Shown here one piece after another: positions 31,701-64,000 of a stretch of DNA of 64,000 nucleotides. The DNA comes from TPA_inf: Saccharomyces (Eukaryota). Every line of letters starts with the position of its first letter. The first letter of the stretch is position 1. A model generated the notes under the pieces. The model saw nothing but the letters and a program-made list of their open reading frames with translations. It searched no databases and had not been told where the DNA came from. Where the stretch lies: NCBI GenBank assembly GCA_000146045.2, contig BK006946.2:96001-160000 (forward strand), read 5' to 3'. The position numbers and the translations under genes are program-made.

Positions 31701-33367
31701 AAGGTGTTTAATAATAGATATTTGGTTTCGTTCCAACGTGGATTTTTAACATTTGATTTGATAGATGTACGCACTTCTTCATCTGTACCAGGCACAGCAT
31801 CTTCGGTAGTCATAACAATATAAGGATCGACAGTATTGGTAATGAAATCTGAGCCTTTCAAAGAGTCGGCAGAAGCAATGGTTACGGCAAGGACACCAAT
31901 AGCTTCTTTTGATTGAGCAGCCATAATGTCTTCAACATTAATATCCAAATGGTTCGGAGGGAATAGCATAGGCCCTATATTGGAGTTGATAATGTTTTTA
32001 ACAAAACTCTTCAAACCAGGCAAGAATGACATAACATCAAGACCTAAAGTATCACCACCAATTGGTTTCAGTGCGAAATCAATCAAAGGTGGTTCTAAAA
32101 GTTGTAAAGAAACAATTTTGATATTTGGGAAAGCTTTACCAAATTCAACTTTAATACGCATTTTACCAGCAACGTTAATGTCTTCAACCAAAATAGGCAT
32201 TGTTTTAGAGACAAAACTTTTTCCTAACGTGACACCCAGAGATATTTTTGGATTGATCTTCTCCCTAGCTTCAGTAGCTGTCATATCCGAGACATCGCTT
32301 GGGGTGAATGCAAATGACCAATCCATTTCAACAGTGTTTTTACCAGTCTTGGTGTACGATTTAATACCTTTTATGGTGGGAGCTTTAGAGCCCAGAGTGA
32401 ATTCATCGATAGCTAACGCATCGATACCGTAACCTGGAGCAACACCTGCCAGTTGAGGGTTAACGTTATCTTTGACTTGTTGAGATAAAACTGGCATGTA
32501 AATCACCCAAAATTTTGATAAAAATGAATTCAACCACGTAGTGGATTCAACGCGATCCGACAAGGTTTCTTCGACTGTAACTCTTTTCAAGTCATCTCTG
32601 ATATTTCTGTTGAATCTTGTATATTCTGCGTTGTAAACGGTCGCAGTTCCCAAGAAGATAAATATCATAGACCACCATGAAAACCCAATGTAAGCAAATA
32701 ACCATGAGAAGAAACAAGTTCCAAGAACGGTGGCTATATTACAGTACCAATCGTTATAAAAATTTTCCAGAATGTAAGCTTTTATAACCCTGGACATCTT
32801 TGTATTTGGCGAACCCTTTCCTGAAGCATGGAACTCACCAACATTTTGCCATGGAAATAACTTGTCGTCGGAATCTAGGTGAAATTTTTCCTTAATATCC
32901 TTTTCATCAAGTTTGCCTAAGTCGTCTAAGACGCCAGGCTTAGTAATCGAAGTGTCGAATTTATTTGGCTTCCTAGATGGTGCTGATCTGAATTCCTTCG
33001 GACGTAAACCTTCCAATGGCACGGCTCCTATGCTTCCCTGTGGGTTGGGACCGGGCAATTGATTGGTTTTTTGAGCGCTGGAGGCAACAAATATGTCTTT
33101 TGATGACTGTTTCTTACCTTCCGGGTTGGAGTCAGCAGTTTTCTGACCTTTAGACACATCAGAAACTGAATTTGAGGTCTTTGTGTCATTTGCGTCATGG
33201 TTAATCAGTTGGTGGTATTGATGGTGACCCGATGGAGCGTGATCAGAACCCCTTTCTTGTTGATTTATGACCTTTTGAGGTAAATTGCCTCCTACTTTCT
33301 TCTTCTCCTCCTCATGAAATAGGGTACTATCAGGTGGGGGATGGACTTGAGCTTTGATGCCAGTCAT
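28730..33367 (-). CDS. TCB3: tricalbin (SMP domain plus multiple C2 domains), ER-plasma membrane tether, 1545 aa
   Basis: 1545-aa ORF with an N-terminal membrane hairpin, SMP-like region and several C2-domain-like blocks. Length and position match TCB3 (YML072C). Confidence 0.9.
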   Translation of the reverse strand: MTGIKAQVHPPPDSTLFHEEEKKKVGGNLPQKVINQQERGSDHAPSGHHQYHQLINHDANDTKTSNSVSDVSKGQKTADSNPEGKKQSSKDIFVASSAQKTNQLPGPNPQGSIGAVPLEGLRPKEFRSAPSRKPNKFDTSITKPGVLDDLGKLDEKDIKEKFHLDSDDKLFPWQNVGEFHASGKGSPNTKMSRVIKAYILENFYNDWYCNIATVLGTCFFSWLFAYIGFSWWSMIFIFLGTATVYNAEYTRFNRNIRDDLKRVTVEETLSDRVESTTWLNSFLSKFWVIYMPVLSQQVKDNVNPQLAGVAPGYGIDALAIDEFTLGSKAPTIKGIKSYTKTGKNTVEMDWSFAFTPSDVSDMTATEAREKINPKISLGVTLGKSFVSKTMPILVEDINVAGKMRIKVEFGKAFPNIKIVSLQLLEPPLIDFALKPIGGDTLGLDVMSFLPGLKSFVKNIINSNIGPMLFPPNHLDINVEDIMAAQSKEAIGVLAVTIASADSLKGSDFITNTVDPYIVMTTEDAVPGTDEEVRTSIKSNVKNPRWNETKYLLLNTLEQKLNLKCFDFNDVRKDTVIGDLQLDLADLLQNPVLDNQTAELRSGTKSKGILHYSLHWFPVKEDKSEEKAVERAEAKAKGKKEDENEDTTEKEEDENEESSQTDVGIAKITLQKVKYLDTTSSMTGSLSPCAELFIDGQKVKSYRTLRRINEPSWNETIEVLVPSKSNSKFVLKIFDDRMNGKALICEYSSSLDDIMTTLDTAQEFVKGSPQGDIYLDVSWKSIEMTGAFAAANSVSEPIGCIKLDVKDAIIKGDLSGVGDVDPYYTVSLNRRVLYKSIYHSDTDHPIFDNSTYVPIFSPNQILTLEFHDYQKIGKDRFIGSVQIPTSNVFKKDPKSGKYVGNNGKEEISKLKLKDHEHKVTESIVNVSTTFIPINLVYSPEELVNVEKLEKELKEKKKKFEATQEENEQEMEKNPKEWEVAEIEDPFDSDEKKINRKAKLSLNELIKQKSGILSMQILEGTLSPSSAYLEILADDISYPVFICMKPSQGKLNSEMANIFIRDLNYSKLHFRVSKKHIAKDSDDVISETSYSTLKLLKQAYEEPMWLNFNGSKMKVRFLYTPTSVKLPSSESVEDTGYLNIKLISGHGLKSADRNGYSDPFVHIFVNDKKVFKSNIKKKTLDPVWNEDAKIPILSRSKNQVIFNVLDWDRAGDNDDLGQASLDVSSLEVGKTYNWNLNLNTQGSIKLQGSFNPEYIKPSFDIVKGGITDKPMKIASGAAHATVGIAGTGIGAATGVATGGLKKGGHLLKSLGGNPMKRSKSSNGNESNGAKKSSEKKSFDRRSPSNLNSTSVTPRASLDYDPSVPNTSYAPVQSASPVVKPTDNTSSSSNKKDTPSSNSRGHSRASSFARTLAPHGTYNGFITVVAAENVAKHVQIKISLTQGGRLKHIYKTKSQKANNDGVAVFDEECSFKASPEANLVLGAISHQRLSRDKDLGIAQINLGDPQIQQDGQISVKLGDGHLIVKINYGKDKNGQVPPVPEVPQEYTQ

Positions 33368-49138: not shown

Positions 49139-49876
49139 TCATGTATTAACGCCCGGCGATGGTGCCTTAGATGAGGGCGACGAGGAGGGCTTCCTGATAT
49201 TATGGCTCTTTCTATCCTGACTTTTGTTATGATGTCGATGTTGCTGGCCACCTAGGTGCTTATATATCAAAAGAGGATCGCCGATTTCATTGATTTCTGG
49301 GATGGTTAATGTCAAATTAAAGATCTTTGCCAGTGCAATTTTGAAAATTTTTTGAATGTTTATAGATTTGGCAGTAGAGCAGAATATAAGAGGAGCATTC
49401 ATGACCTGTGCATACTTCATACTCGTTCTCGAGATTTGTTCCTGATATTCCGGGTCTAAGTCTATTAGTAAATCGTACTTTGTGCCCACCAAAATAGGAA
49501 TTGCCGAATCATTTAGCCCGTACGCCTGCCTATACCACTCCTTTATTGAACTCAACGTCTCTGGACGTGTCAGGTCAAACAGAAATATGATCACTGAAGA
49601 CCCTACCGTCGCAATTGGGAGCATGTTGATGAATTCTCTTTGTCCGCCTAAATCCATTATAGAAAATATAATATCCGTGGAGCGTATGCTTACTTTTCTT
49701 TTCAAAAAGTTCACTCCCAGCGTCTGTGTGTATTCCTTATCGTATATGTTCTGTACGTACTTCACCATCAGCGATGTTTTCCCTACTTGTGCATCCCCTA
49801 CTAATCCAACCTGAACTTCAACCTGATTTCGTACCGCAGGTATAGAATTGTTTGCTCCCGTGCTTGGTGTAGCCAT
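49139..49876 (-). CDS. TEM1: Ras-family GTPase of the mitotic exit network, 245 aa
   Basis: GTPase G-box motifs: GDAQVGKTS (P-loop), DLGGQ (switch II) and GTKYDL (NKxD-like). 245 aa (YML064C). Confidence 0.9.
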
Positions 49877-55870: not shown

Positions 55871-57001
55871 ATGTCTTATAAATTCGGCAAACTTGCCATT
55901 AATAAAAGTGAGCTATGTCTAGCAAATGTGCTACAGGCTGGCCAATCCTTTCGATGGATTTGGGATGAAAAGTTAAACCAGTACAGCACTACAATGAAGA
56001 TAGGCCAGCAAGAAAAGTATTCAGTAGTGATTTTGAGGCAAGATGAAGAGAATGAGATCCTGGAATTTGTTGCTGTCGGCGACTGTGGCAATCAGGACGC
56101 CTTAAAAACTCATCTAATGAAATATTTTAGATTGGACGTGTCACTGAAGCACTTATTCGATAATGTTTGGATTCCAAGCGATAAAGCATTTGCGAAACTT
56201 TCTCCACAAGGCATCCGTATCTTGGCCCAGGAACCATGGGAGACATTGATTTCCTTTATTTGCTCGAGTAATAATAACATTTCAAGAATTACGAGAATGT
56301 GCAATAGCCTTTGCTCTAATTTCGGGAACTTAATCACAACAATAGATGGGGTCGCCTACCATTCGTTTCCTACAAGTGAGGAGCTAACTTCTCGAGCCAC
56401 TGAAGCCAAGTTGCGTGAGCTGGGCTTTGGATATAGAGCTAAGTATATTATCGAAACCGCGAGAAAACTGGTGAATGATAAAGCTGAAGCTAATATTACT
56501 TCTGACACCACATACCTTCAAAGTATCTGTAAAGATGCTCAATATGAAGACGTTAGAGAGCACCTCATGTCCTACAATGGTGTAGGCCCCAAAGTTGCTG
56601 ATTGCGTTTGTCTAATGGGACTTCACATGGATGGCATCGTCCCCGTAGATGTCCATGTTAGTAGAATTGCGAAGAGGGACTACCAAATATCTGCGAACAA
56701 GAACCATCTCAAAGAATTGAGGACAAAATACAACGCCTTACCTATCTCAAGAAAAAAAATCAACCTAGAGCTCGACCATATTAGATTAATGCTTTTTAAA
56801 AAATGGGGATCATACGCTGGTTGGGCCCAAGGTGTCCTATTCTCTAAAGAAATCGGAGGGACTAGTGGTAGCACTACAACTGGTACTATAAAGAAGAGAA
56901 AATGGGATATGATAAAGGAAACGGAAGCAATTGTTACGAAACAAATGAAACTGAAAGTTGAATTGTCTGATCTTCACATCAAAGAAGCAAAAATAGATTA
57001 G
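55871..57001 (+). CDS. OGG1: 8-oxoguanine DNA glycosylase / AP lyase (HhH-GPD family), 376 aa
   Basis: HhH-GPD motif region (...LMSYNGVGPKVADCVCLMGL..., DVHV...) containing the catalytic Lys and Asp. 376 aa (YML060W). Confidence 0.9.
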   Translation: MSYKFGKLAINKSELCLANVLQAGQSFRWIWDEKLNQYSTTMKIGQQEKYSVVILRQDEENEILEFVAVGDCGNQDALKTHLMKYFRLDVSLKHLFDNVWIPSDKAFAKLSPQGIRILAQEPWETLISFICSSNNNISRITRMCNSLCSNFGNLITTIDGVAYHSFPTSEELTSRATEAKLRELGFGYRAKYIIETARKLVNDKAEANITSDTTYLQSICKDAQYEDVREHLMSYNGVGPKVADCVCLMGLHMDGIVPVDVHVSRIAKRDYQISANKNHLKELRTKYNALPISRKKINLELDHIRLMLFKKWGSYAGWAQGVLFSKEIGGTSGSTTTGTIKKRKWDMIKETEAIVTKQMKLKVELSDLHIKEAKID

Positions 57002-57218: not shown

Positions 57219-60200
57219 TCAAATACTATTTCTTCTATGTAATAAAAACTCAGGAACTTGAGAATTCAAAGTGGTTTCTTGTGAACCAGGTATATATGGC
57301 ATCTTGTCGTCGTCAATAAGCCCTTGCAAAAAGATACGACCATAGTCTACACCCACATGATAAATTTCTTCGAACTTGCTAAAGTCTAATGTGGCATATT
57401 CTTCAATAGGTGGTCTCACATAAACGACACCTGGTGTATTTTTCGCTTTCTCTAAAGCATTTACTGATGCGACGTAACCCAATCTAACTTGAATCTCTGC
57501 CATATTGGGTATGTTTGGATGAGAAGAAAATGGATTCCATCTATTGAAAATGATCCAAAACCCATTTAGGGAGTCACCATATTCCATAGGCGTTCTATCA
57601 TCTGCAGAACCTACATCTACTGCAAATATAGTTTGGCAACCACGCGCTCTCATCTCAGTTACTGGTAAATTATCAACATAACCACCATCCAGTAACATAG
57701 ACCCGTTCTCTTCCAAAGGAGGTAAAAGACCAGCAAGAGACATCGAAGCTCTGATGTACCTCCACGCATAACCAAAGGAATGTATTTCTTGAACCGAATC
57801 GGTTATATTAGTAGAATTACAATAATACTGGATCCAGAAGTCTTCAATTCTTGTATCCCCGAAAGTTTTCCAAATACCTCTATTAAATTCGTGACCAGTA
57901 GTATAAGAAGTAACCGGCCAGGTTAAATCTGTTAACATTCTCCATATAGAGGAAATTCGACCAGCAAACTTCTTCACGCGGCCGTAAATTGGCACCAAAT
58001 CATAATCCTTCGCGTACAAACCGCCAACAAAGGAACCAATCGATGTTCCTCCAATAACGTCGACCGGAATACCTTGTTCTTCAATAGCTTGAATGACACC
58101 CAAATGACTAATACCTCTCGCACCTCCTCCTCCGAGGACAAGTCCAATAGCTTGTCCAGAAAGAATTCTAGCCAATCTTAGAAAATCATTTTTATGCCTA
58201 TGAACTGGTGTGTAATATTGTCTTTTACTTTTCATGAATCTTGAAGAAAAGTTTTCTACGGTGTTCTTGATAGAATCTGGAAGTAGTTTTGATATATTCT
58301 GTTGAGTTTTTCTACTGAATTCTGTTTGAATCAACTTATCCATTAATGCCAAGGCACCATTATTCAAAACGTGCATTTTGCCTTCGTTCATCAAGGTTGT
58401 TCCTGTCAAACTAAATTGAATGTGATGATGCGAATGAACCCATGGCCTATAGCGTAACCACTTATGGGTTAGTCCTGGTTCCACATACCTTTCAGGGTGT
58501 AGAAGAATTAACTCGGTCCTTGCGGTAGTCTTTGAATTTAGTAATAACTTTTCATATTCTCCTATTTCGGCTGATGGAGATCTAGCATCTGCTAGTAAGA
58601 GAATACAATCACCTTGCGCAATACAGGTTCTTGTCCAATTAGATTTAACTGGTGTATCTGATATATAAACAACAGTCTGGTACATTTCTTCTAGTTCAGC
58701 AAAGTAACCACTTTGTTTTAATTTGGACAATCTGTCAAATGCATGACGACCTAAATGTGTTAGGGTAGTTCTTTGATTTAAACCAATCGTGGTCCTTCCT
58801 ACCTGTTTGAAAGCTTGCACTAACTTCATAGCAAATGCTTCTACAGGTAGTCCACTGGTAATTGGTAAGATAGTGATGGTTCTAAAAGTAATTGTGCCAG
58901 AAGTAATATTTTGGGGTTTATGACTTAAAGAGCTAGAGTAAGACGCTTTCGTTGGAGGTATTAAAGAAGTGAAGTCGTTTTCCTTTATAGATAATGGATC
59001 GCCTGTTAATGCTGGAACAGTTCTATCTCCGACAATTTTTTTAGCAACTAATCTGGAAACTCTAATCATGATAGATGGATGTTCAAGAGCTAATAGTTCG
59101 AATAATGTTCTCGGAATTCTCGCTAATTCAGAATCCCTCACTGCCACTATCGTTGAATATCTATTCATAGCGGTAAGCACTTCAACTTCACCAAAACTCT
59201 CCCCCTGGGCCAGTTCTCCTAGAATAATGTTCTGAGTTTCAACTTCTTCGGAACTTGTATTGGAGTTTGACAATGACTGCTGTTGTAGCTGCCTTAGTCT
59301 ACCATTCAGGACAACATAAATACCGTTAGCCGAGTCACCTTGTGAAAATAGAGTTTCAGAAGCCCTCAAGTGAACCCATTCTAAAGCATGGTCGAGCTTT
59401 AATAACCTTGAAGATAGCAATTTGGTTAATGAATCAGAAATCCGTAAGTAGATTAGGAAATATTTATCAAACAATCTTTCTAAGGTTGCACTAGATAAAA
59501 ATCCAACATAGACATCGCTCTTGGCAACGATATTAACAAATGATTTGTAACCAATTAGAGAGGACAAGTAGCCCACAATACCACCAGATCCTACAGAGTA
59601 TAACAAATGTTGAGTATGATGAGGATTTTCACCCTTGTGTGAACTTTGGGCTGAAACCTGCTCTGGTTTAGACATTGATGATACTACTGACGAGGACGAA
59701 TTTGTTGTCACATTAACTTTCCCGGAAATGATATAGAATAGGCCTTTACCACGAGCGTTCTGCTCAACAATTGTGGTGCCCTTTTTAAAGAACTTCAACT
59801 GAATGCCTTGTGCAAAGTCTTTCTTGACATCTTCGAAATCCAAATTGGGTGTCAACTCCTCTTTGTAAGCTCTAGGTTTTTTTTTGTCCTGGCTTTTACT
59901 TTTATTATGCCTTTTATTGCTGATAGTGTATTCTTTGGGTAGGATTCTTAACATTGTCGGTTGAGTTTGAGGAGAGGCAAATGATGAAGCTACGGAAATG
60001 TCAGATGGTGTACAGTGAGGGGACATCAGAAAACTTGCGTTACTTGGACGGCGGCTATACATTTCATTAAGTTGAGGAGAGTTTAAAGAAGACATATTTG
60101 CTATCGAAGAAGATGAAACGGACATATTGCTTTTGTTTACACCCAAGTATGTTAACATTGCCTCAACTAAAGCCATTCTTAAAGCAGAGTCCTCGGTTTC

Positions 60201-62258
60201 TTCCTGGGCAGCAGAAAAGGATGTTGTGGGCAGTAAATTAGGTCTTGGAGAGACCCGTCCCTTCAAATGAACGGGACTTGGGTGGATATGGTCATGAACA
60301 GAAGTATTATCCAAGGACAAGGGCGATGTACTAAGTTGTGCGTTGCGCAATTCTGGGGACAAAGAAGAAAACTTCTTAGAGTGTACGGAAGCATTGTTAC
60401 TGCTACTCCTAGAAGATCGCTTATGTTGGTTAGAGGTAGAAGTGTTAATACCGTTTGATTTATTGCGGTTGTTATTATGGATTGGGTTGGGTGACAGAAT
60501 ATCCATAGTTCTAGACAGTGGGACATTTGACAGTAAATCACCAGGATTAAATTGGTCTCTTGAACCCAGTACGACATGTCTCGAACTTGGATGGTGGGTG
60601 AATTCTGGTTTCAGTGAAAGGGAATTCGAACTTGTGTTAGCGTTGGCGTTAGCAATCTTAAGCGATTGAATGATACCATCAGATGGCTTCGCTTTGGGCG
60701 GTTTCTTCAATTTAGAGGAAGCATTACTATTTTTGGGTTTCGGTTCTAAATCAGCCGATCCGCTCGACTTATCTACAGTTTTAAACTTACGAATAACGGC
60801 CTCTTTCAAATAATAAGGCAATTCATAAACGATGGATTTATTTAGTAAAACTTCGATATCCATGATCTCCTTTGTTAAACCTAAGTAGTCGTGAGCAGTT
60901 TGGAACGTAACATGGTATAGCTTGGTGAGAACCATCTGTATGATATGGGAAGCAGACCGTGGGTATTTTGCGGTTAATTTGGCAAACGATTGAGGTGGGA
61001 TAATACCAATTGTGCAGTCTGTAGCCGCACGGGCGACAAGTTTAGGCATTGAAGAGGGGAACGTTGGAAAGCTGTTGGTGGAGTTTGTCATGGAATCTGT
61101 GTTGGAGAAGTTCTGCTCTGATGAGCAGAACATATTGTTGACCGACACCGTTGTGTCTATAGGTGACGATAACTCAGAGGGAAAGTTACTGTTGCCATAC
61201 GAGGACATGGAATGCGTGAATAAGTTTAAAATGCTCACGAGGGAGGTCAGCGGGTTTCCTGGCTTGACTGTATTTAGCAGTTGAAAATTTCCCAGTCCAT
61301 TTTTCAGATGAATGTAACCAACGGATTCATCTTCTTCATCGATGAGGTTAGAAGAACAAGATTTGGTGTCGTAGTTATCAATGTCATCATCTTCTTCTTC
61401 GTCTTCTTCATCTCTATCCTGGTCGTCAAGACCATCCGTGTCACTGTGGTCAGTTTCATCGCCATGGTCCTTATCTGAATGATCTACTTCATGATATAAC
61501 TGCAGGGTGCCTTCAACGACGATGGCAAACCCAATAGTACTGTCCAACAGTAAAATCTCACCCTCATCCATTTTTTGAGTTTTCATATTCTTGGTCAGGT
61601 CATGGAAGACTGGTTTTTCCAGATAGCCAAAGATTTTGATGGCGCTGAGAAATTGGTCAAGGTAAGATGAAAGAAAGGTTTCGTTTTCGTTGCCATCTTT
61701 CAATGAATGCTTTTTTGAGTCTATAATCGAGCTTGCACCCGTGGTAGAGGAACCTATGGCGGGTGGCGCGTTGGCTGACTGAGTGGAAGCTGCATTGATA
61801 TTGGCGCTGGAGCCAGATTTACCTGTATTTTCCAGCGGCAAGAACTCCGGGGTCAGCCTCTTGTACTGGGATAGAATTCTCTCCTTCATGATGGTGTAAG
61901 TCACAAAGACTATGACGGCTAGGGCAAACAGGATCAGCCAAAAGGAAAGAGTGAACTGAACATGGTGTAACTTGAAGAAGATCCACTTCGGAATCCTTAA
62001 AAGCGATAAAGTTGCCAGATACCAACCGTACCTGAAGATCATACGAGAGGCACCCATAACAAAGTAGGACACAACCCACGAGAAGTTGAAGAGGGATGAA
62101 AGTGACCACGTCTGCGCCTCAGAAATAATCTGGTCGGTGAGACATGTCTGGAATCTATAAGAAGTATAATTACTGGAATTAAAGCTGGAGCCAAGACTGT
62201 TTTTCGTGTTTTGGCCGGTATTGTTGGTGTTGTTCGTAGTGCAATTCATTGAACGCAT
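57219..62258 (-). CDS. NTE1: ER phosphatidylcholine phospholipase B, neuropathy target esterase homolog (cNMP-binding-like domains plus patatin domain), 1679 aa
   Basis: N-terminal TM segments, cyclic-nucleotide-binding-like regions and a C-terminal patatin domain (GLVLGGGGARG...GTSIGS...DGG). 1679 aa (YML059C). Confidence 0.9.
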   Translation of the reverse strand: MRSMNCTTNNTNNTGQNTKNSLGSSFNSSNYTSYRFQTCLTDQIISEAQTWSLSSLFNFSWVVSYFVMGASRMIFRYGWYLATLSLLRIPKWIFFKLHHVQFTLSFWLILFALAVIVFVTYTIMKERILSQYKRLTPEFLPLENTGKSGSSANINAASTQSANAPPAIGSSTTGASSIIDSKKHSLKDGNENETFLSSYLDQFLSAIKIFGYLEKPVFHDLTKNMKTQKMDEGEILLLDSTIGFAIVVEGTLQLYHEVDHSDKDHGDETDHSDTDGLDDQDRDEEDEEEDDDIDNYDTKSCSSNLIDEEDESVGYIHLKNGLGNFQLLNTVKPGNPLTSLVSILNLFTHSMSSYGNSNFPSELSSPIDTTVSVNNMFCSSEQNFSNTDSMTNSTNSFPTFPSSMPKLVARAATDCTIGIIPPQSFAKLTAKYPRSASHIIQMVLTKLYHVTFQTAHDYLGLTKEIMDIEVLLNKSIVYELPYYLKEAVIRKFKTVDKSSGSADLEPKPKNSNASSKLKKPPKAKPSDGIIQSLKIANANANTSSNSLSLKPEFTHHPSSRHVVLGSRDQFNPGDLLSNVPLSRTMDILSPNPIHNNNRNKSNGINTSTSNQHKRSSRSSSNNASVHSKKFSSLSPELRNAQLSTSPLSLDNTSVHDHIHPSPVHLKGRVSPRPNLLPTTSFSAAQEETEDSALRMALVEAMLTYLGVNKSNMSVSSSSIANMSSLNSPQLNEMYSRRPSNASFLMSPHCTPSDISVASSFASPQTQPTMLRILPKEYTISNKRHNKSKSQDKKKPRAYKEELTPNLDFEDVKKDFAQGIQLKFFKKGTTIVEQNARGKGLFYIISGKVNVTTNSSSSVVSSMSKPEQVSAQSSHKGENPHHTQHLLYSVGSGGIVGYLSSLIGYKSFVNIVAKSDVYVGFLSSATLERLFDKYFLIYLRISDSLTKLLSSRLLKLDHALEWVHLRASETLFSQGDSANGIYVVLNGRLRQLQQQSLSNSNTSSEEVETQNIILGELAQGESFGEVEVLTAMNRYSTIVAVRDSELARIPRTLFELLALEHPSIMIRVSRLVAKKIVGDRTVPALTGDPLSIKENDFTSLIPPTKASYSSSLSHKPQNITSGTITFRTITILPITSGLPVEAFAMKLVQAFKQVGRTTIGLNQRTTLTHLGRHAFDRLSKLKQSGYFAELEEMYQTVVYISDTPVKSNWTRTCIAQGDCILLLADARSPSAEIGEYEKLLLNSKTTARTELILLHPERYVEPGLTHKWLRYRPWVHSHHHIQFSLTGTTLMNEGKMHVLNNGALALMDKLIQTEFSRKTQQNISKLLPDSIKNTVENFSSRFMKSKRQYYTPVHRHKNDFLRLARILSGQAIGLVLGGGGARGISHLGVIQAIEEQGIPVDVIGGTSIGSFVGGLYAKDYDLVPIYGRVKKFAGRISSIWRMLTDLTWPVTSYTTGHEFNRGIWKTFGDTRIEDFWIQYYCNSTNITDSVQEIHSFGYAWRYIRASMSLAGLLPPLEENGSMLLDGGYVDNLPVTEMRARGCQTIFAVDVGSADDRTPMEYGDSLNGFWIIFNRWNPFSSHPNIPNMAEIQVRLGYVASVNALEKAKNTPGVVYVRPPIEEYATLDFSKFEEIYHVGVDYGRIFLQGLIDDDKMPYIPGSQETTLNSQVPEFLLHRRNSI

Positions 62259-62396
62259 GCAAAAACTAGAGCCAAGCCTTTCTATTCTTTTCTTGTTTAT
62301 TTTATATTCGTTAGAGTTTTGTGGTGTTTCTTTAACTTAATAAACTTTCGAGAAAAGTGTCAAGTTTCCCAGATTTTTAAGATCCTTATAACCTGT

Positions 62397-62420
62397 AAAA
62401 AAAAAAAAAAAAAAAAAAAA
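62397..62420 (+). promoter_or_regulatory. 24-nt poly(dA:dT) tract in the NTE1/HUG1 divergent promoter
   Basis: An uninterrupted run of 24 A, likely a nucleosome-excluding promoter element. Confidence 0.5.
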
Positions 62421-62546
62421 GAAGGGTTTAAATAAAAATCGGACTTACTCAAAGGGTTGAAAAGCACTTTAATATAGGTTTTTAGTTTCGGGTAAGAAGA
62501 TGTGTCAAAGGTCTCGAAAAGGAAACATTAGGGCAAATACGTAAAG

Positions 62547-62599
62547 GTTGCCTTCGTATCTCGTTTCCACAGCAACGAGAAACGAGATACGAAGGCAAC
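62547..62599. promoter_or_regulatory. perfect 21-bp inverted repeat with 11-nt spacer, about 160-210 bp upstream of HUG1; the outer ends are RFX-type half-sites (GTTGCC ... GGCAAC)
   Basis: gttgccttcgtatctcgtttc | cacagcaacga | gaaacgagatacgaaggcaac. The arms are exact reverse complements. Confidence 0.5.
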
Positions 62600-62759
62600 T
62601 GATTCCCAGCATATAAAAGGCCATGAATTTTTGGCGTTTCCTATTGTCTTTTCGAAACTATTTCTTTCATTCCTTTCCTTTCTTGTTCTTTTACTTATAA
62701 GAAAAATAATATACGTATATATATAACTACAAACCACATCAGCAATAAAAAAAAACTAT

Positions 62760-62966
62760 ATGACCATGGACCAAGGCCTTAACCCAAAGCAATTCTTCCT
62801 TGACGATGTCGTCCTACAAGACACTTTGTGCTCAATGAGCAACCGTGTCAACAAGAGTGTCAAGACCGGCTACTTATTCCCCAAGGATCACGTTCCTTCT
62901 GCCAACATCATTGCCGTCGAACGTCGCGGCGGTCTTTCTGACATTGGTAAGAATACTTCCAACTAA
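62760..62966 (+). CDS. HUG1: small DNA-damage/replication-stress induced protein, 68 aa
   Basis: MTMDQGLNPKQFFLDDVVLQDTLCSMSNRVNKSVKTGYLFPKDHVPSANIIAVERRGGLSDIGKNTSN (68 aa, YML058W-A). Confidence 0.85.
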   Translation: MTMDQGLNPKQFFLDDVVLQDTLCSMSNRVNKSVKTGYLFPKDHVPSANIIAVERRGGLSDIGKNTSN

Positions 62967-63382: not shown

Positions 63383-63697
63383 ATGCAAAATTCCCAAGAC
63401 TACTTTTACGCTCAAAATCGCTGCCAACAACAACAAGCCCCTTCCACATTGCGTACCGTGACCATGGCGGAATTTAGAAGGGTGCCTTTGCCACCTATGG
63501 CTGAGGTTCCTATGTTGTCTACTCAAAACTCCATGGGCAGCTCCGCTTCTGCCTCCGCTTCTTCATTAGAAATGTGGGAAAAGGATTTGGAGGAGAGACT
63601 CAACTCTATCGATCATGACATGAACAACAACAAATTTGGTTCTGGCGAACTAAAATCTATGTTCAACCAGGGTAAGGTCGAGGAAATGGACTTCTAA
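63383..63697 (+). CDS. SML1: ribonucleotide reductase (Rnr1) inhibitor, 104 aa
   Basis: MQNSQDYFYAQNRCQQQQAPSTLRTVTMAEFRRVPLPPMAEV...GSGELKSMFNQGKVEEMDF (104 aa, YML058W). Confidence 0.9.
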   Translation: MQNSQDYFYAQNRCQQQQAPSTLRTVTMAEFRRVPLPPMAEVPMLSTQNSMGSSASASASSLEMWEKDLEERLNSIDHDMNNNKFGSGELKSMFNQGKVEEMDF

Positions 63698-63845
63698 AGT
63701 TCCTTTCATACTCTTTTCTTTTCTCTTTCCATTTCCCACTAGTTCTGTTCTTTTCTTCTCTTAGATACCCTTCTTTTCAGGGACTCTCGTCCTACTATTG
63801 TTGTCATTCTCGAAACATTCTCTCCCGTGCATTTTCCTTTCCCTT

Positions 63846-63876
<31 letters not shown>

Positions 63877-64000
63877 GTCTCTTCTACGTATTTTTGTATT
63901 TCTGTGTCTTTATCAAAGATAGTCTATAATACGTTTGATACAGCTAGATATCGCTAGCGCCAACATTGTCCCCCTCTCTTGATCAATGCTTTTTTTCGGC

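Follow-up and report, generated by a model that had tools for sequence, protein, structure and literature searches.

A conserved palindrome in the Saccharomyces HUG1 promoter, a probable repression operator with a candidate Crt1/Rfx1 X-box at its centre

Introduction

Why does the HUG1 promoter of Saccharomyces cerevisiae contain a long perfect inverted repeat, and what part of this element is functional? The repression of HUG1 by Crt1/Rfx1 through X-box elements is already published, in agreement with an earlier note on this DNA: the X-box of the RNR2-4 and HUG1 promoters is bound by Crt1 (PMC3806659) and phosphorylation frees Crt1 from the RNR2-4 and HUG1 promoters (PMC6695201). The earlier note had proposed two readings of the palindrome, an unusual operator split between its two ends or simply a structural element. 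These readings are weighed here against the anatomy of the element, its conservation in the genus Saccharomyces and its resemblance to the promoter of RNR3.

Materials and methods

The window is the whole stretch of DNA that was analysed (64 kb) and all positions are given in its numbering unless a locus is named. Perfect inverted repeats were scanned exhaustively across the window with loops of at most 60 nt. The orthologous loci were recovered via the Hug1 and Sml1 proteins and come from S. paradoxus (L006, L007, L024, L025), S. mikatae (L001), S. kudriavzevii (L011, L012), S. arboricola (L023), S. uvarum (L002-L005) and S. eubayanus (L008-L010), in addition to a sample of ten S. cerevisiae strains (L013-L022). 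The base pairs of the arms were counted on the outer 17 bp of both arms, aligned for eight distinct sequences.

Results

The inverted repeat and its position in the HUG1 promoter

The segment 62547-62599 reads GTTGCCTTCGTATCTCGTTTC-cacagcaacga-GAAACGAGATACGAAGGCAAC, with two arms that are complementary at 21/21 positions and a spacer of 11 nt (Table 1). The exact palindrome described in the earlier note is borne out by this reading, and the hexamers GTTGCC and GGCAAC are present at its ends as it had claimed. With loops of at most 60 nt, this is the sole perfect inverted repeat longer than 14 nt in the window; the runner-up outside simple sequences has arms of 10 nt, and the remaining palindromic hits of the scan correspond to a (TA)n microsatellite located downstream of SML1 (63845-63880). 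The 16-mer of the arms, searched in the whole window with up to three mismatches, has no copy besides the two arms, and the element is therefore not a dispersed repeat or the end of a mobile element. A full-text search of the literature with the sequence strings of the element gave only unrelated primer matches. A scan for promoters and terminators of bacterial type, which is not relevant to yeast, gave no hits.

The palindrome is contained in the NTE1-HUG1 intergenic region, which measures 501 bp. From the position of the HUG1 ORF, it spans -213 to -161 relative to the HUG1 ATG, confirming the place in the HUG1 promoter, about 160-210 bp upstream of the gene, that had been given for it. It is also upstream of NTE1, at a distance of about 290 bp from the ATG. 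The consensus TATA box of HUG1 falls in the run CATATAAAAGGC (62610-62621), which is invariant in the seven-species alignment. The Rox1-like element that follows shows 9-11 matches out of 12 to YYHATTGTTCTC and occupies the same position in 7/8 promoter sequences, the exception being S. arboricola, where it is not found at that position. Its ATTGT core is included in a conserved block, GGCGTTTCCTATTGTCTTT (62633-62651), just 3' of the TATA box.

Other features of the intergenic region were noted in the course of the alignment. The longest invariant run of this region in the seven species is CTTTCGAGAAAAGTGTCAA (19 bp, 62345-62363), which contains a heat-shock-element-like TTCnnGAA and is located about 90-105 bp upstream of the NTE1 ATG. 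The motif TTAGGGC (62528-62534), 13 bp upstream of the palindrome, is near-invariant in the seven species (CTAGGGC in S. eubayanus) and resembles the TTAGGG motifs of Tbf1 or PDS type. A poly(dA) tract of 24 nt (62397-62420), which probably serves to exclude nucleosomes, is found between the divergent NTE1 and HUG1 promoters. The tract has this length in S. cerevisiae only; in the other species the A-rich stretches are shorter and interrupted.

Table 1. Features of the HUG1 locus and of the palindrome, in window positions, with the order of the palindrome modules in each species
Feature	Positions	Strand	Sequence	Remark
NTE1	57219-62258	-		1679 aa, patatin and cNMP-binding protein
Left arm of the perfect inverted repeat	62547-62567		GTTGCCTTCGTATCTCGTTTC	
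Left X-box-like 14-mer	62547-62560	+	GTTGCC-tt-CGTATC (GTTGCCttCGTATC)	perfect outer half-site, degenerate inner half
Mot3-consensus match, left arm	62549-62554	+	TGCCTT	invariant in 8/8 sequences
Central compact X-box	62563-62576	+	GTTTCC-ac-AGCAAC (GTTTCCacAGCAAC)	candidate Crt1/Rfx1 dimer site
Spacer, 11 nt	62568-62578		CACAGCAACGA	includes the right half-site of the compact X-box
Right arm of the perfect inverted repeat	62579-62599		GAAACGAGATACGAAGGCAAC	
Right X-box-like 14-mer	62586-62599	+	GATACG-aa-GGCAAC	mirror of the left 14-mer, two mismatches to the RFX consensus
Mot3-consensus match, right arm	62592-62597	-	AAGGCA (TGCCTT on the minus strand)	retained in 6/8 sequences
Consensus TATA box of HUG1	62612-62619	+	TATAAAAG	12 bp past the right arm
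Rox1-like element	62640-62651	+	CCTATTGTCTTT	HMG core ATTGT, downstream of the TATA box
HUG1 ORF, regulated gene	62760-62966	+		translation is the 68-aa Hug1; database name agrees
SML1 ORF	63383-63697	+		translation is Sml1; database name agrees
Modules, S. cerevisiae, S. paradoxus, S. uvarum, S. eubayanus			TTGCCTTCG / TATCTCG / TTTCCACRGCAA / CGAGAAA / CGAGATA / CGAAGGCAA	
Modules, S. mikatae			TTGCCTTCG / TATCTCG / TATCTCG / TTTCCACGGCAA / CGAGATA / CGAAGGCAA	
Modules, S. kudriavzevii			TTGCCTTCG / TATTTCG / TTGCCGTGGAAA / CGAGATA / CGAGATA / CGAAGGCAA	
Modules, S. arboricola				S. cerevisiae layout with an extra 8-bp unit

A compact X-box at the centre of the palindrome

The X-box consensus of the RFX proteins, which we take to be GTNRCC-N(0-3)-RGYAAC, is composed of two inverted half-sites. 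The earlier note, which saw the half-sites at the outer ends of the palindrome instead of in a compact 13-mer, missed a compact X-box: the last five bases of the left arm and the spacer build the motif GTTTCCacAGCAAC, which differs by one mismatch from GTNRCC-NN-RGYAAC (GTNRCCNNRGYAAC) with a 2-nt spacer. This central X-box is present with at most one mismatch in 8/8 orthologous HUG1 promoters and is the only RFX match kept in all of them. Its half-sites are constant (GTTTCC and RGCAAC) and its spacer is ac, ag (S. arboricola) or gt (S. kudriavzevii). A site that a dimer reads, as the central X-box would be, is expected to keep its half-sites, in either orientation, and to leave its spacer free.

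The HUG1 promoter contains three RFX-like matches, all located within the palindrome, and no other cluster of three such matches is found in the window. Since the promoter has no RFX-like match elsewhere, the palindrome very probably corresponds to the published X-box site of HUG1; the other HUG1 and Crt1 papers that were consulted do not state the coordinates of the site. A single match is not rare on its own, five 1-mismatch matches being found in the window where 3.3 are expected. Matches with no mismatch occur inside long ORFs, at 32429-32443 (GTAACCtggAGCAAC), 49240-49251 (GTGGCCAGCAAC) and 56069-56083 (GTCGCCgacAGCAAC). They were rejected as functional sites and attributed to chance, and their presence within ORFs indicates that the RFX consensus alone is not diagnostic.

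Conservation of the arms in the genus Saccharomyces

The palindrome occupies the same position in all seven Saccharomyces species examined. It is without polymorphism in the ten S. cerevisiae strains, and SNPs are present in the bases immediately flanking it on both sides. In the seven-species alignment, 16 of the 21 positions of each arm are invariant (76%), versus 26% of the positions in the upstream intergenic flank and 19% in the downstream one, and on average the arms are 95% identical to those of S. cerevisiae, versus 62-69% for the flanks. The invariant runs are TGCCTTCGTAT in the left arm (62549-62559) and ACGAGATACGAAG in the right arm (62582-62594). The earlier note had suggested looking for the arms in the other sensu stricto Saccharomyces; both are kept, and the objection that a lack of conservation would have raised falls away. 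This conservation of the arms across species argues for strong purifying selection on the palindrome.

Between the fixed arms, the interior (equivalent to 62556-62590) has been remodelled several times, and rearrangements of the spacer are seen in S. mikatae, S. kudriavzevii, S. arboricola and one S. uvarum strain. The core of the S. mikatae element (L001, 2299-2350) is shifted by 7 bp, with a unit TATCTCG gained on the left and a unit CGAGAAA lost on the right. The 18-bp core of S. kudriavzevii (L012, 2292-2345), TCGTTGCCGTGGAAACGA, corresponds exactly to the reverse complement of the core found in S. uvarum, S. eubayanus and S. mikatae, with a flip at each of the four asymmetric positions. 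An extra unit of 8 bp is found in S. arboricola (L023, 1637-1700) and a 5-bp duplication of GCAAC in one lineage of S. uvarum (L002, 2290-2350). The span of the element exceeds 53 bp in these last two cases and is constant at 53 bp in S. cerevisiae, S. paradoxus, S. mikatae, S. kudriavzevii, S. eubayanus and one S. uvarum strain. The central X-box survives both the inversion of the core in S. kudriavzevii and the 7-bp shift in S. mikatae. The pattern suggests that the interior changed by inversion or template switch mediated by the inverted repeat, with selection retaining the X-box and both arms. The mutational mechanism that we infer is a hairpin-templated inversion or slippage.

Candidate protein sites in the arms

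Each arm contains an X-box-like 14-mer (Table 1). The left 14-mer has two RFX mismatches in S. cerevisiae and more than two in S. mikatae, S. kudriavzevii, S. arboricola, S. uvarum and S. eubayanus. The right 14-mer keeps at most two mismatches only in S. cerevisiae, S. mikatae, S. kudriavzevii and one S. uvarum strain, and both 14-mers exceed two mismatches in S. eubayanus, S. arboricola and one S. uvarum strain.

The consensus sequence of Mot3 is TRCCTD (bioRxiv 10.64898/2026.07.17.739231). Only two matches to TRCCTD are present in the S. cerevisiae HUG1 promoter, one per arm, and the hexamer is retained in 14/16 arms versus 7/16 for the canonical RFX outer half-site. The invariant core of the arm, TGCCTTCGTAT, appears to fit the Mot3 consensus better than the RFX half-site. 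TRCCTD is a short motif that gives about three matches per kb by chance, and its match to the arms was noticed post hoc, so that the Mot3 reading is a possible lead and not a result. No published evidence was found for Mot3 or Rox1 acting on HUG1; HUG1 and Mot3 are mentioned separately, with no link between them, in PMC5217111.

The inner segment of the arm, CGTATCTCG, is also invariant and is not obviously explained by RFX or Mot3. The arms could be bound by a factor different from Crt1 and Mot3 that recognises the invariant TGCCTTCGTATCTCG, for example a zinc-cluster protein on TCGTATC, with Crt1 present at the centre only. We consider this unlikely, even if the invariant part of the arm does reach 9-10 bp inward of the RFX/Mot3 hexamer and GATACGA/TCGTATC has one mismatch (6/7) to the sterol element TATACGA of Upc2/Ecm22 (PMC7397035). 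Matches to TATACGA with one mismatch arise at 2.5 per kb by chance, a literature link between HUG1 and the sterol regulators was not found, and three densely packed repressor dimers could also constrain every base. The sterol-element reading of TCGTATC was set aside as statistically weak.

Sequence rather than structure

Folded as single-stranded DNA, the palindrome has an energy of -23.7 kcal/mol versus -4.6 +/- 1.6 kcal/mol for shuffled sequences (z = -12.3), and a hairpin potential is found in all the species (-15.7 to -24.8 kcal/mol, z = -5.7 to -12.3). If the palindrome were a structural element, a cruciform or hairpin would be extruded under supercoiling induced by transcription or damage and would be read, for example, by HMG-box or junction-binding proteins. 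The hairpin potential is indeed kept even after the rearrangements of the interior, and the core inversion and the moves of 7-bp units are of the kind made by hairpin-mediated template switching. The arm pairs tell otherwise: in the alignment of eight sequences, 12 of the 17 pairs never vary, and each of the other five has changed on a single side. T:G results from three of these changes and the remainder give broken pairs; no pair has changed on both sides (0/17 compensatory changes), most one-sided changes break the pair, and the covariation score equals the shuffled expectation. As the substitutions of the arms are one-sided and none is compensatory, selection seems to act on the sequence of the arms, i.e. 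on protein binding, rather than to maintain a hairpin or cruciform.

Two further points bear on this alternative. The near-invariant sequence of the arms is not required by structure alone, and mirror-image protein sites account equally well for the retained symmetry, the hairpin potential persisting in all species because it follows automatically from the mirrored sites. Loops of 11-19 nt with arms of 16-21 bp are unfavourable for the extrusion of a cruciform. The structural alternative finds no support in these comparisons and is very unlikely.

The outer hexamers

The split operator proposed in the earlier note would consist of one Crt1 dimer or oligomer bound to the outer GTTGCC and GGCAAC, 41 bp apart, with the intervening DNA looped or serving as spacer. 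In S. cerevisiae and S. kudriavzevii, both outer hexamers match the RFX half-site perfectly. They are nevertheless the least conserved part of the arms, in particular in the outermost one or two bases. S. mikatae has A for the first G of GTTGCC, where S. uvarum, S. eubayanus and S. arboricola have T, and GGCAAC is replaced by GGCAGC in S. paradoxus, S. eubayanus and one S. uvarum strain and by GACAAT in S. arboricola. The canonical half-site is retained in 7/16 arms of the eight sequences, and this poor conservation implies that a split operator with a 41-bp gap is not the conserved feature. Conservation is higher in the interior, which holds a complete compact X-box, than at the ends; in S. 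arboricola the interior is longer, the ends are degenerate (TGTGCC and GACAAT) and the centre is intact. We find the split operator highly improbable.

The palindrome was also compared with Rfam, where the best matches, of miRNA-hairpin type, reach 23.2, 22.7 and 14.7 bits versus gathering thresholds of 211, 91 and 160 and were rejected as chance matches far below threshold. An RNA hairpin in an upstream non-coding or divergent transcript has a very low probability: the three T:G changes would be G-U wobbles in RNA and the weak Rfam matches are of hairpin type, but the palindrome lies upstream of the HUG1 TATA box and well upstream of the NTE1 ATG, these matches are at the level of chance, and compensatory covariation is absent.

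Discussion

A probable composite repression operator

The anatomy of the palindrome, its deep conservation, its similarity to the sites of RNR3 and the absence of structure-preserving covariation were established in this analysis. The palindrome is probably a double-stranded repression operator, with a central X-box for Crt1/Rfx1 and two mirror-image auxiliary repressor sites. In this operator, the 53-bp palindrome would act as double-stranded DNA that binds repressor proteins and not as a hairpin. A Crt1/Rfx1 dimer would occupy the central X-box, and the arms (16-21 bp) would be mirror copies of one auxiliary site, TTGCCTTCGTATCTCG. Each arm would represent a weak X-box, composed of a good and a degenerate half-site, overlapped at its good half by the Mot3 hexamer TGCCTT. 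This assignment of proteins to the parts of the palindrome, especially to the arms, is deduced from motifs and alignments.

Crt1, and probably Mot3 and the factor of the Rox1-like site located 3' of the TATA box, would recruit Ssn6-Tup1 at 12 bp from the TATA box and so keep HUG1 silent. Upon DNA damage or replication stress, Mec1-Rad53-Dun1 (and Mck1) would phosphorylate Crt1, which would leave the DNA, with a strong derepression of HUG1 as the outcome. The Crt1 dependence of HUG1, the recruitment of Tup1-Ssn6 and the release by phosphorylation are taken from the published literature. Rox1 and Mot3 also repress RNR2-4, together with Crt1, through Ssn6-Tup1 (PMC3088718), and hypoxia induces both HUG1 and RNR3 (PMC5217111).

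A more elaborate form of this operator is offered as a tentative and rather doubtful proposal. The palindrome would be an unusually compact, dyad-symmetric composite in which the central Crt1 X-box is flanked by mirror sites, each combining a partial RFX half-site and a Mot3 site. At least three Ssn6-Tup1 recruiters would then be assembled as one symmetric complex beside the TATA box, linking the control by DNA damage to the control by hypoxia. The arms may also have promoted the hairpin-templated flips and the 7-bp shifts of the central site during the evolution of Saccharomyces, without loss of function.

HUG1 is widely used as a DNA-damage reporter, in promoter-GFP biosensors and in screens of Hug1 induction. 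A single 53-bp module beside the TATA box carries all the recognisable repressor sites and offers a defined target to engineer or dissect this response. The conserved functional core would consist of the central X-box and the invariant inner arms and not of the outer hexamers, which corrects the earlier reading. The rearrangements of the interior represent a small and clean case where a transcription-factor site appears to have been inverted and shifted within a conserved palindrome.

Comparison with known systems

The closest comparison is with the X-box damage-response elements that Crt1/Rfx1 has in RNR3, its classic target, as well as in RNR2, RNR4 and CRT1. RNR3 and HUG1 share a published regulon and the Ssn6-Tup1 mechanism (PMC3806659, PMC6695201). 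In the same scan, the RNR3 promoter displays three X-box-like sites, GTTGTCacAGCAAC, GTTGTCgcAGCAAC and GTTGCCatGGCGAG, all with a 2-nt spacer and all conserved in S. kudriavzevii and S. eubayanus; these sites were called from the consensus and from conservation, not from the original footprints. There are three conserved sites per promoter in both genes. The central X-box of HUG1, GTTTCCacAGCAAC, resembles GTTGTCacAGCAAC (identical at 12/14 positions) and GTTGTCgcAGCAAC, with the same consensus and the same 2-nt spacer, and the HUG1 arm GTTGCCttCGTATC resembles GTTGCCatGGCGAG, each having one perfect and one degenerate half. The arrangement differs: the RNR3 sites have the same orientation and are 49-61 bp apart, over about 125 bp, whereas the HUG1 sites are packed in 53 bp, the outer two being exact mirrors and the array being located 12 bp from the TATA box.

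Three direct repeats of TTGCCTT were also observed between the RNR3 TATA box and the ATG (S. cerevisiae L026, 1393-1421; also L027 and L028), and they are invariant in three species. The same heptamer is found at the start of each HUG1 arm and agrees with TRCCTD, the Mot3 consensus. TTGCCTT may be a second motif shared by the Crt1 regulon.

The Ssn6-Tup1 operators that combine Rox1, Mot3 and Rfx1 (RNR2-4 and hypoxic genes, for example ANB1/TIF51B) constitute a second comparison. HUG1 likewise has TGCCTT and a Rox1-like ATTGT near an X-box, and RNR3 likewise has conserved TTGCCTT repeats and ATTGT elements. HUG1 differs in that its motifs are short and the Mot3 hexamer overlaps the RFX half-site. 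By analogy only, HUG1 shares with the dyad-symmetric operators of dimeric repressors a mirror symmetry about a central dimer site, and its interior changes (the core flip of S. kudriavzevii, the gains and losses of 7- and 8-bp units) are similar to those of quasipalindromes remodelled by template switching. Next to these systems, the new detail of the HUG1 element consists of its dyad-symmetric architecture, its possible Mot3 sites and the rearrangements of its interior, and it represents a refinement of a known regulon and not a new kind of system.
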